The translations under genes were made by a program, and so were the position numbers. From Escherichia coli O157:H7 (GTDB lineage: Bacteria; Pseudomonadota; Gammaproteobacteria; Enterobacterales; Enterobacteriaceae): a stretch of DNA of 64,000 bases. Location of the stretch: the NCBI RefSeq assembly GCF_013167455.1, contig NZ_CP038328.1; one strand, written 5' to 3'. The notes below the pieces were generated by a model. That model did not search any database and was not told where the DNA came from. It saw only the letters and a program-made list of their open reading frames with translations. Of this stretch, positions 32,259 to 34,480 are shown in pieces (position 1 is the first letter of the stretch; every line of letters starts with the position of its first letter).

Positions 32259-32672
32259 ATGATGCCAGTTAGCCATAATCTCTGCATTTTCTTAAACGTT
32301 GGTTTGGGAGAAGCGGCAAAACGGGATGTGGGGACAGGGGAAAATCAGATACCGGACATGGCCTCTTTTGCCAGTGGTGATGGATGGATGAAATTACCCA
32401 ACGGGAAAATCCTGCAATATGGTCGTGGTGCGGTTACGCCGACATTATCGACGCAAACAATGAGAATTACATTCAGCATCCCTTTCTCCAAAAAAGCGGA
32501 CTGCGCCATGCTTACTCATTCTGGTGATGGCGGTGCGCCTTTAGGCGCTGGGCGAGGGTTCGTGATGACTGCAGAAGGCCCAACGTTAACCGGCTTTAAT
32601 TCTGCTTACAGAACGTCATCAACCAGCGACACGGTATCGATGAATTACAGTTGGTGGGCTGTTGGTGAGTAA
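32259..32672 (+). CDS. Alternative tail-fibre C-terminal variable cassette (silent orientation)
   Basis: ORF begins at the crossover site (…NVGLGEAAK…) and lacks its own N-terminal domain; followed by its own assembly chaperone. Confidence 0.5.
   Translation: MMPVSHNLCIFLNVGLGEAAKRDVGTGENQIPDMASFASGDGWMKLPNGKILQYGRGAVTPTLSTQTMRITFSIPFSKKADCAMLTHSGDGGAPLGAGRGFVMTAEGPTLTGFNSAYRTSSTSDTVSMNYSWWAVGE
32287..32312 (+). repeat. gix/pix-like recombination site (left inverted repeat of the invertible segment)
   Basis: TTTTCTTAAACGTTGGTTTGGGAGAA; its reverse complement matches 34178-34203 over the first 14 nt and about 20 of 26 overall. Confidence 0.6.
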
Positions 32673-32683
32673 TTTTATTCAGG

Positions 32684-33136
32684 GTGATTTATATGAATGA
32701 ATATGTTTATAGCGCAAGGCATAATGCTTTTTTCCCTGTGGATATGATTGATAAATATAAATCAGAGGGATGGGATTTATCAGACGCTAAGGAAGTAAAT
32801 CAAAATATTATCAGTGAGTTTATGGCTGAACCGCCACAAGGAAAAATCCGTATTGCCGGAGATGATGGGCTGCCTGCGTGGGCAGATATTCCTCCACCCA
32901 CGCATGAAGAACTTATTGAAATTACTGAATCAGAAAGACAGCTACTAATTAACCAGGCCAACGAATACATGAACAGTAAACAATGGCCCGGTAAAGCCGC
33001 TATTGGTCGTCTGAAAGGTGAGGAACTGGCGCAATATAATTTGTGGCTGGATTATCTGGATGCACTGGAGCTGGTTGATACCTCCAGTGCGCCAGATATT
33101 GAATGGCCTACGCCTCCGGCAGTTCAGGCCAGATGA
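32684..33136 (+). CDS. Tail fibre assembly protein (alternative cassette)
   Basis: 150 aa; conserved Tfa-like C-terminus (…DYLDALELVDTSSAPDIEWPTPP) shared with the convergent Tfa ORF. Confidence 0.6.
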   Translation: MIYMNEYVYSARHNAFFPVDMIDKYKSEGWDLSDAKEVNQNIISEFMAEPPQGKIRIAGDDGLPAWADIPPPTHEELIEITESERQLLINQANEYMNSKQWPGKAAIGRLKGEELAQYNLWLDYLDALELVDTSSAPDIEWPTPPAVQAR

Positions 33137-33710
33137 CATCCGGCGCGGTGCTGGTATCTGTTGCCGTCACCGCGTCAATGTAATCCAGCACAGCGTTAAG
33201 TCTGGTTGTTTCTGCCTGCGTCGGTTTACGTCCGGCCTGCAATTTCAGTTGAATCAGACTGATGGAAGCCATTGCTGCATCAATCAGTGACTGGCGCTGT
33301 GCTTCTGCCGCTTCTACTGCGGCACCGTGTTGTGCCTCAGTATCTGTCACCCATTTTTCACCATCCCATTTATCGAATGGCGTTAACGGGGCGATAGTGG
33401 TTGTATTTTCAGGATAATCACCCGGAGCTGTGATTTCTTTGGCGTCTCCCGTTTCGGTGTTATAGACGATTTCACCGCGATGGTCTGGCACATATTCCCA
33501 TGAGTTTAAATCCATCGAACGGCAGATAGCATAACCCGCCTTATGTATACCAGGTTCATCCAGACAGGAATATGCAGGGATACCGACACCAATGGCAAGA
33601 TATTCATTTGAAGTAGAAATATATTCCCGAGTTTTACCATCATAGTTATAGACGGTAATATTCCCCGCCTTCGTGGCAATAAGCTCGCTATTTAATACGG
33701 CGTTATCCAT
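33108..33710 (-). CDS. Tail fibre assembly protein (expressed cassette)
   Basis: 200 aa; C-terminus …LDYIDAVTATDTSTAPDVIWPELP, a paralogue of the opposite-strand Tfa. Confidence 0.65.
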   Translation of the reverse strand: MDNAVLNSELIATKAGNITVYNYDGKTREYISTSNEYLAIGVGIPAYSCLDEPGIHKAGYAICRSMDLNSWEYVPDHRGEIVYNTETGDAKEITAPGDYPENTTTIAPLTPFDKWDGEKWVTDTEAQHGAAVEAAEAQRQSLIDAAMASISLIQLKLQAGRKPTQAETTRLNAVLDYIDAVTATDTSTAPDVIWPELPEA

Positions 33711-34480
33711 TATGCAGCCCTCACGATATAGTTAAATGCAATATTTCGTGGACGGGTTTCACTCCCGCCAGTATTACCGATACTCCCTCGTGAATGAAGT
33801 GTCGGTGATGGGATCAGACTCCCTCCTGTATTTGTGGCATCAAGTCCCCGTCCTTGTGTGTATGTCTTTTTGAAAATCGTAGCCAGTTCCCATTCATCTT
33901 TTGTGTCGTAACCATCATTGGCAACAACAATATGGCGGTGTTTTTCCAGCATCCCTGTCTGAATGCTCAATAAAACACGTCCTGCATCAATACCGCGCCC
34001 GTCATCCCAGCCACGAATAAACTCACCACGTAAATCAGGCAATTTATTTGTCGGATAAGCCTTTGCCAGTTCCGGGTATTCTTCAGCAGAAAAAGCCGCA
34101 CCGTTGCATTTCAGCCAGCCTGTTGGCGGTGTGGCTGAAGGCCATGGAACAGGCACACCAACAGGTAATGCAGAGCCTTCTCCCAAACCAAGGTTTTCGA
34201 GAGCCGTTTGCACAGTGCCATCCGATTTGATATCGCCAAACGGATTCTTGCGGCTTAACAGCAGCGCGCGAAGTGCGGTAAGTAACTGGTCGTGCCGCCC
34301 CTTCTCCAGGCTGGCACCGGATGCCTCCACCACGCTGCAAAGTTCCTCCTGCAACATGTCAAAGTAGTCATCATCCAGATCGGTGGCAGGCGTGCCGGTC
34401 TGGGGGTTACCACGGGTAAAACCGTTCTTACCCGCGCCGAACTTATCCTTCTGCGCGGTTTTCGTGTCTATACGATGCAT
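33710..34480 (-). CDS. Side tail fibre protein (constant N-terminus + invertible C-terminus)
   Basis: 256 aa; crossover site lies within codons for ENLGLGEG; Gly-rich receptor-binding C-terminus. Confidence 0.65.
34178..34203 (+). repeat. gix/pix-like recombination site (right inverted repeat) inside the tail-fibre gene
   Basis: TTCTCCCAAACCAAGGTTTTCGAGAG, inverted relative to 32287-32312. Confidence 0.6.

Follow-up and report, generated by a model that had tools for sequence, protein, structure and literature searches.

An SfV/e14-like myovirus prophage of E. coli O157:H7 carries, at its tail-fibre end, a Pin/pix-type site-specific inversion switch of the Din family, a reading to which we assign a probability of about 0.9. 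The locus was analysed within a stretch of 64 kb, referred to here as the window, and is an ordinary example of a type already described, the textbook e14/Mu-type tail-fibre inversion switch. Its nearest relative, judged by sequence, is the Pin system of e14, ahead of the Mu G segment/Gin. Inversion of the segment occurs in nature, and strand exchange takes place inside the two recombination sites.

Two pix-like sites of 26 nt were located in inverted orientation. The invertase-proximal site (32287-32312, plus strand) is composed of the half-site TTTTCTTAAACG, a TT core (32299-32300) and the half-site GGTTTGGGAGAA, and the fibre-side site (34178-34203, minus strand) is composed of CTCTCGAAAACC, a TT core (34191-34190) and GGTTTGGGAGAA. 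Each consists of imperfectly symmetric 12-nt half-sites around a 2-bp core shared by the two sites. A preliminary description had reported 26-nt inverted repeats at these positions, and both were read directly in the sequence; it had given 14 nt of identity and about 20 of 26 matching positions, which is close to the measured values, an exact run of 15 nt (32299-32313/34191-34177) being shared and 21 of the 26 positions agreeing. The pair was the top-ranked inverted repeat in a repeat search of 31000-36000 (20 nt, 95%). A degenerate 19-nt site pattern allowing up to three mismatches matched these two places only in the 64 kb, with a chance expectation of 0.08 and at least two matches in none of 100 shuffled sequences. 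A shufflon or Min-like multi-site system was also considered and rejected; additional recombination sites were sought across the 64 kb and just the two were found.

The sites were compared with known recombination sites, as the preliminary description had proposed. The invertase-proximal site is identical to the pin-proximal site of e14 at 25 of 26 positions and the fibre-side site is identical to the fibre-side site of e14 at all 26. Both align in register with the annotated cixL and cixR sites of P1, whose annotation places the crossover between the two T residues of CCTTGG. The fibre-side site codes for the residues ENLGLGE, at the point where the constant part of the fibre meets the variable part.

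The invertible segment, measured between the two core dinucleotides, is 1,891 bp (32300-34190), and flipping it reproduces natural strains. The preliminary description had also suggested a check for the opposite orientation, and among public complete E. coli genomes (3-kb query, at least 80% coverage) 84 carried the orientation of the window and 80 the exact orientation obtained by flipping it in silico; these counts represent the majority orientation of each assembly. The condition named there for refutation, absence of the inverted orientation, thus does not hold. The sequence of strain 119 is obtained exactly when the window is flipped with its left boundary anywhere between 32299 and 32314. 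Similarly, strain 113 flipped at 32300-34190 is identical to strain 119 over 33,001 nt, with no mismatches, so that the two isolates differ over 33 kb by the inversion only. Opposite orientations in isolates with no other differences over this distance point to recent and frequent switching. In strain 119, the recombinant junctions place the exchange inside the 15-nt identical core (32299-32313), and the polymorphic base at 32298/34192 remains with its flank in the recombinants. The length of an efficient RecA substrate far exceeds 15 nt of identity. The 3-kb query matched between one and five places per individual O157:H7 record, and the multiple matches may include other pin-like genes or fibre/chaperone genes. 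Strains 113 and 119 are near-clonal cattle isolates.

In-silico inversion demonstrated that both orientations encode complete in-frame fibre open reading frames (ORFs), of 256 and 220 amino acids, with residues 1-100 in common, and both forms are annotated by PGAP in natural genomes. The fibre gene expressed in the orientation of the window encodes 256 amino acids (33710-34480, minus strand; Pfam Collar, 2e-15) and is divided into a constant N-terminal part (34192-34480) and a variable Collar-domain part (33710-34189). Residues 1-102 are 98% identical to StfP of e14 and 92% identical to orf21 of SfV. The fibre-side site lies inside this gene at the ENLGLGE codons, and consequently the constant N-terminus can be joined to either of two ends. 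The second end is an unfused cassette on the plus strand with a Gp53-like_C fibre C-terminal domain (32262-32672, the ORF also being readable from 32259; Pfam Gp53-like_C, 7e-12; PGAP WP_001145350.1). This cassette codes from 32301, shares 97.6% identity with the C-terminus of the fibre of the P2-like phage pro483, and is placed by inversion into the in-frame fibre of 220 amino acids. It can additionally be read as an ORF of 136 amino acids with a 12-residue stub starting outside the segment; because an ORF thus begins just beyond the segment boundary, the "silent" cassette may not be fully silent.

Each cassette is followed by a tail-fibre assembly chaperone gene annotated by PGAP. The chaperone of the Gp53-like cassette has 147 amino acids (32693-33136, plus strand; Pfam Caudo_TAP, 2e-31), and that of the expressed cassette, which is annotated as tfaE, has 200 (33108-33710, minus strand; Caudo_TAP, 5e-32). 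The 3' ends of the two genes overlap by 29 bp on opposite strands, and the same 29-bp overlap is present in e14. The preliminary claim of two convergent fibre C-terminal cassettes, each with its own chaperone, is thus borne out by the Pfam assignments. The crossover had been placed within the codons for ENLGLGEG of the fibre and NVGLGEAA of the silent cassette; the expected peptides were found in the fibre and in the opposite, plus-strand cassette (FLNVGLGEAAKRD, 32259/32262-32672). The tips differ in Pfam family, one being Collar and the other Gp53-like_C, and this is compatible with the recognition of different receptors.

The serine DNA invertase gene encodes a pinE-like protein of 184 amino acids (31677-32231, minus strand; Pfam Resolvase, 9e-52, and HTH_7, 5e-13), and PGAP annotates pinE at the same coordinates. 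The gene is located downstream of the invertible segment and shares its direction of transcription with the tail genes. It had been described as adjacent to the segment, and the distance is 55 bp. The ORF is intact, with the catalytic Ser9 within GYVRVST and a full helix-turn-helix (HTH), and a Shine-Dalgarno-like AGGGGA precedes the ATG at 32231 by 7 nt. A consensus scan for promoters and terminators over 31500-34700 gave nothing above the shuffled expectation, and it found no convincing promoter for either pin or the stub ORF. Identity of the invertase is 95% to PinE of e14 and 78% to Gin of Mu (141 of 181 positions; PDB 4M6F match, E=3e-92). By these comparisons it is a member of the Din family (Gin/Cin/Pin/Hin), Pin subgroup, and together with the resemblance of the sites to those of e14 they uphold the earlier assignment to the Mu G/e14 Pin family.

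Residues specific to Fis/enhancer-dependent invertases, which in Hin are Q151/R154/L155 and the basic residues 47/48/51 (PMC3798978), are kept in the invertase of the window as Q150/R153/L154 and K46/K47/R50. A putative Fis-dependent recombinational enhancer was located at the 5' end of the invertase gene (32142-32213, minus strand; pin nt 19-90) by homology, this stretch having 78% DNA identity to the feature annotated in P1 (AF234172) as 'enhancer of Cin-mediated C-segment inversion' (cin nt 19-90). Synonymous conservation relative to P1 cin was not in excess over the enhancer-homologous region, third-position identity being 0.46 there and 0.48 elsewhere, and conservation therefore gives no independent support for the enhancer. 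The region contains two Fis-consensus-like 15-mers (GN13C) at 32210-32196 and 32161-32147, with centres 49 bp apart; in the Hin system the Fis sites are spaced by 48 bp, centre to centre. The first of the 15-mers is ∼96 bp from the nearer recombination site, comparable to the enhancer-to-site distance of ∼100 bp stated for Hin (PMC3798978).

The following mechanism is proposed. Dimers of the 184-residue invertase would bind the two inverted 26-nt sites and would be activated, most likely, by a Fis-bound enhancer lying within the initial ∼90 nt of their own gene. Staggered cuts at the central TT of each site, followed by rotation of the DNA ends, would allow the 1,891-bp segment to be religated in the opposite orientation. 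The constant N-terminus of 97 residues, the baseplate-attachment part, is combined in the state of the window with the Collar-domain C-terminus and the TfaE-like chaperone (256 amino acids), and in the flipped state with the Gp53-like C-terminus and the second chaperone (220 amino acids). Virions carrying one or the other of two different receptor-binding tips would then be released from a population of lysogens, which would amount to bet-hedging on host range, and the O157:H7 element would probably act as a switch of receptor specificity.

The closest described counterpart is the Pin/P-segment system of e14 (pinE, stfP/ycfK, tfaP, tfaE, stfE; Plasterk & van de Putte 1985, Mehta et al. 2004, as cited in PMC4272514), where inversion at the sites by PinE/PinQ has been demonstrated experimentally (PMC12529663; PMC4272514). 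The genes are arranged alike in the two elements, ymfQ, fibre and chaperone being followed by an inverted chaperone and cassette and then by pin; a stub ORF lies beside pin in both elements and the stub regions can be aligned. The segment is 1,797 bp in e14 and 1,891 bp in the window. The Collar cassette is 61% identical to StfE of e14, with the central region replaced, whereas the Gp53-like_C cassette is only 26% identical to the C-terminus of e14 StfP and is a different module. Beyond pin, e14 carries mcrA and the window a LEM-3-like GIY-YIG gene. While e14 is a truncated remnant, the prophage of the window is apparently complete and SfV-like.

The Cin protein of P1 is homologous to the invertase of the window throughout, as are the 5' regions of the two genes, which in cin include the annotated enhancer. 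P1 also has two convergent cassettes of fibre tip and chaperone (Sv-U/U'-Sv') and sites of 26 nt with 12-nt half-sites and a 2-nt core. However, its invertible segment is 4.3 kb, compared with 1.9 kb here, and the fibres of Mu and P1 are much longer than the 256 or 220 amino acids found in the window. Furthermore, cin is transcribed toward the segment, with cixL overlapping its 3' end, whereas pin in the window faces the segment with its 5' end. The gin gene of Mu likewise has its 5' end facing the segment. In SfV, the pix-like core is present once, in perfect form, at the corresponding junction of the fibre, but the phage carries a single fixed fibre and chaperone, with neither a second site nor an invertase, and the gtr O-antigen genes and int come next.

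The prophage that ends with the switch is SfV/e14-like, and its 16.6-kb head-tail module (head, tail and baseplate) is 97.6% identical to that of the viable phage SfV. Its SfV-like genes for head, tail and lysis appear to form a complete set, and the prophage as a whole looks complete as far as it lies within the window, its integrase end being located beyond. The ORF list showed the HNH endonuclease gene beside the terminase to be intact. Disruption of this gene by IS1203, which would make the prophage defective and is annotated in strain 7409, was considered and rejected, as BLAST of the locus against the window found no copy of the IS and the ORF is uninterrupted. A search with ARAGORN found no tRNA gene beside the P4-type integrase.

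An alternative reading accepts the inversion and holds that its selected function in O157:H7 is host defence: whichever cassette faces the invertase gene is fused to the stub, and the resulting fibre tip, truncated at its N-terminus, could occupy outer-membrane receptors and so block adsorption of other phages. Kirigo et al. 2025 (PMC12529663) reported that inversion of the e14 P segment produces StfE2 as a fusion to the stub, and that this protein prevents T2 from adsorbing. The stub architecture in O157:H7 is the same, with a stub ORF from 32262 that has 136 amino acids in the state of the window and 172 when flipped, both annotated by PGAP, and the stub region can be aligned with that of e14. 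However, the ribosome-binding context of the stub ATG is poor, with GGGG directly against the ATG, the consensus scan found no promoter for the stub ORF, and the cassette equivalent to StfE2 is just 26% identical to the C-terminus of e14 StfP. Unlike e14, the O157:H7 prophage has an apparently complete set of SfV-like head, tail and lysis genes, and the classical function of the fibre in a virion therefore has a substrate. Defence as the selected function is for these reasons considered unlikely. Host-range and defence functions are not mutually exclusive, and the module could double as a recombinase-switched anti-phage system, in which a free tip expressed from the stub would mask the receptor and inversion would toggle both the phages excluded and the host range of the prophage itself; this, too, seems doubtful on the present analysis. 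In a weaker variant, the prophage might be the equivalent of the e14 remnant in intact and inducible form, usable for finding the receptors of e14-type tips.

It is highly improbable that the switch is an evolutionary relic, with orientation differences arising from rare or ancient events, RecA exchange or an invertase acting in trans rather than from the adjacent pin: PinQ, a second invertase of K-12, does invert the e14 segment in trans (PMC12529663) and the 3-kb query matched one to five places in individual O157:H7 records, but the pin ORF is intact with its catalytic serine and full HTH, the orientations are near 1:1 (84 and 80) and differ between isolates with no differences over 33 kb, the flanking polymorphism at 32298/34192 is left in place in every exchange, and an identity of 15 nt is far too short for an efficient RecA substrate.

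Apart from its correct annotation, this Pin/pix-type switch is of little wider importance, and the gene is already named pinE in RefSeq. Since near-identical O157:H7 assemblies differ here only in orientation, the locus can be expected to show up as apparent structural variation. In outbreak genomics, alternative protein calls are to be expected at this position, of 256 and 136 amino acids in one orientation and of 220 and 172 in the other. The prophage, seemingly complete, SfV-like and related to the defective e14, could be used to test what e14-type fibre tips bind, and the recent claim that inversion of the e14 P segment protects against T2 is testable in a pathogenic background.

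The inverted repeat that the preliminary description placed around two tail-fibre cassettes proved to be real on direct reading of the sequence. The left-hand, invertase-proximal site (32287–32312) reads TTTTCTTAAACG-TT-GGTTTGGGAGAA and the right-hand site, on the opposite strand (34203–34178), reads CTCTCGAAAACC-TT-GGTTTGGGAGAA; these 26-nt sites match at 21 of 26 positions and have an exact 15-nt run in common (32299–32313/34191–34177). The pair was the best-ranked inverted repeat within 31000–36000, and a degenerate 19-nt site pattern, allowing up to three mismatches, matched the 64-kb window only at these two sites (0.08 matches expected by chance; two hits in none of 100 shuffles). 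The sites also correspond to known recombination sites: they match the two sites of the K-12 cryptic prophage e14, the repeat of which has been published as TTGGTTTGGGAGAAGG (PMC12529663), at 26/26 and 25/26 positions, and they align, in register, with cixL and cixR as annotated in P1. The P1 annotation puts the crossover between the two T's of CCTTGG, which is equivalent to 32299/32300 and 34191/34190 in the window.

The gene content was also as first described. A 256 aa fibre gene (33710–34480, minus strand; ORF and Pfam Collar), the ENLGLGEG codons of which span the right-hand site, is followed by a chaperone gene (33108–33710, minus; Caudo_TAP). Facing it on the plus strand are a second fibre cassette (32301–32672; Gp53-like_C), the NVGLGEAA frame of which spans the left-hand site, and its own chaperone gene (32693–33136; Caudo_TAP). 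The adjacent gene is that of the serine invertase, pin (31677–32231, minus; 184 aa, Resolvase and HTH_7), whose start is separated from the left-hand site by 55 bp. The 3' ends of the two convergent chaperone genes, which lie on opposite strands, share 29 bp (33108–33136), an overlap identical in e14 tfaP/tfaE, and both genes end in the motif ...PD(I/V)xWPxxP.... A 12 aa ORF start, or stub (32262–32298; MPVSHNLCIFLN...), begins between pin and the site and continues into whichever cassette faces it; its products are annotated by PGAP in both orientations, and the start of e14 stfE can be aligned with this region.

Both orientations of the segment were found among public genomes, which were searched in place of reads or PCR. 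Counting one megablast match spanning at least 80% of the query, the window orientation was present in 84 complete genomes and the in silico flipped query in 80. A flipped construct with boundaries at 32294–34196 initially matched at 99.9%, with two mismatches, because the polymorphic base 32298/34192 remains with the flank on inversion, as seen by junction alignment and a boundary scan. Every boundary in 32299–32314 reproduced the natural flipped sequence exactly, and the exchange therefore falls inside the 15-nt identical run, which includes the TT core. Both orientations were represented in a series of cattle isolates that hardly differ in genome size and carry the locus at one coordinate; strain 113, flipped in silico at 32300–34190, was identical to strain 119 over 33 001 nt, with no mismatches. 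These data argue that switching is recent and frequent and is not an ancient polymorphism. Complete fibres are encoded in both states (256 and 220 aa), each annotated by PGAP in natural genomes.

The proposed Mu G-segment/e14 Pin arrangement was borne out by the invertase, which is 95% identical to PinE of e14 and 78% (141/181) to Mu Gin, the structure of which is solved. The first 102 fibre residues are 98% identical to e14 StfP, and the variable part that is expressed shares 61% identity with StfE, its ends conserved and its middle replaced. The Gp53-like_C cassette is just 26% identical to the StfP C-terminus but shares 97.6% identity with the fibre tip of pro483, a P2-like phage that likewise has an invertase. 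Apart from the enhancer, which is putative, every testable defining feature of a Pin/P-segment system was found, and the module is a member of the Pin/P-segment system of e14-type prophages, within the Din family, to which the G segment of Mu and the C segment of P1 also belong. This kind of system is already known, and RefSeq labels the gene pinE. The differences from e14 are allelic: the cassette content differs, the segment is 1891 bp rather than 1797 bp, a GIY-YIG gene lies beyond pin instead of mcrA, and the window prophage looks complete, as judged from the part inside the window, its integrase end lying beyond.

The Hin, Gin, Cin and Pin systems have been characterised experimentally, and the mechanism here is most likely theirs. 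By homology with them (PMC3798978), invertase dimers would bind both sites, the bound sites would synapse on a Fis-bound enhancer, Ser9 would cleave at the 2-nt core, and the subunits would rotate by 180° before religation. Nucleotides 19–90 of pin (32213–32142) are homologous (78% identity) to the P1 region annotated as the Cin enhancer and contain two 15-mers resembling the Fis consensus. Their centres are separated by 49 bp, and the first lies ∼96 bp away from the nearer recombination site, compared with the ∼100 bp given for Hin (PMC3798978). The positions described as peculiar to Fis-dependent invertases (in Hin, Q151/R154/L155 and the basic residues 47/48/51; PMC3798978) are conserved here, as Q150/R153/L154 and K46/K47/R50. 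Synonymous-site conservation was not raised in the enhancer-homologous region, so a Fis enhancer in the 5' region of pin stays putative and the enhancer step an inference. The two fibre tips belong to different domain families, each with a dedicated chaperone. Such an arrangement is classically associated with alternating receptor specificity, the presumed output of the switch.

An output in host defence appears improbable. In e14, flipping of the homologous segment is reported to produce StfE2, a stub-fused protein that prevents T2 from adsorbing (PMC12529663, 2025), and the window has an equivalent stub ORF, 136 aa long in one orientation and 172 aa in the other; however, translation signals at the stub are poor, a promoter search gave none, the relevant cassette is unlike that of e14 and the prophage looks complete. 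That the segment is a relic flipped by RecA or a foreign invertase is unlikely because pin is intact, the orientations are split 1:1, a flip separates otherwise identical isolates and the exchange is site-precise. It is possible that other Pin-like enzymes help the Pin system in trans, as PinQ does on the e14 segment in K-12 (PMC12529663).

Many E. coli O157:H7 chromosomes match the 3-kb module region at 100% identity, and RefSeq annotation of an identical copy places it at the end of a prophage with lambdoid regulation and lysis genes, an HK97-type head and a Mu-type contractile tail. Along its whole length, the head–tail block (34500–51100, 16.6 kb) shares 97.6% identity with SfV (NC_003444), a viable phage of Shigella flexneri. 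SfV has one fixed fibre and chaperone, without invertase or second site, whereas the window has two cassettes and pin; gtr/int genes occupy the corresponding position in SfV. A single perfect pix-like core, AAACCTTGGTTTGGGAGAA (comparison locus L008, 2456–2474), lies at the constant/variable junction of the fixed SfV fibre gene, and the SfV variable part starts like the unfused cassette of the window (GLGEAAKRDIGTG and GLGEAAKRDVGTG respectively); the site also serves as a junction between modules, where it encodes ENLGLGE. The HNH endonuclease gene beside terminase is intact in the window (51209–51752) and in strain 113. In strain 7409, a further O157:H7 strain, it contains IS1203 (comparison locus L002, 5569–6873), an insertion absent from the window; competence for packaging may therefore vary among the O157:H7 strains that carry this prophage. 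The lysis and packaging modules are separated by an iss/bor-type 'increased serum survival' lipoprotein gene (52037–52378, plus), which lies on the strand opposite to its neighbours.

The prophage directly adjoins a P4-like satellite prophage (∼15000–28363). Annotation of near-identical genomes gives it a P4-type integrase (27131–28363, minus), primase-helicase, psu (polarity suppression), ogr/delta zinc-finger and Icd-like genes; no intact tRNA gene was found at the satellite end by ARAGORN. Beside the integrase are an AAA ATPase and 'ABC-three component system' defence-like genes (∼25040–26740), in the kind of place where satellite defence hotspots are typically found. The prophage-end slot just beyond pin holds different nuclease 'morons': a LEM-3-like GIY-YIG nuclease-domain gene in the window (30843–31616, plus; Pfam 2e-14) and the McrA restriction nuclease in e14. 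After the LEM-3-like gene come an AraC-family regulator (29275–30027, minus) and an IS3-family integrase fragment (28868–29233).
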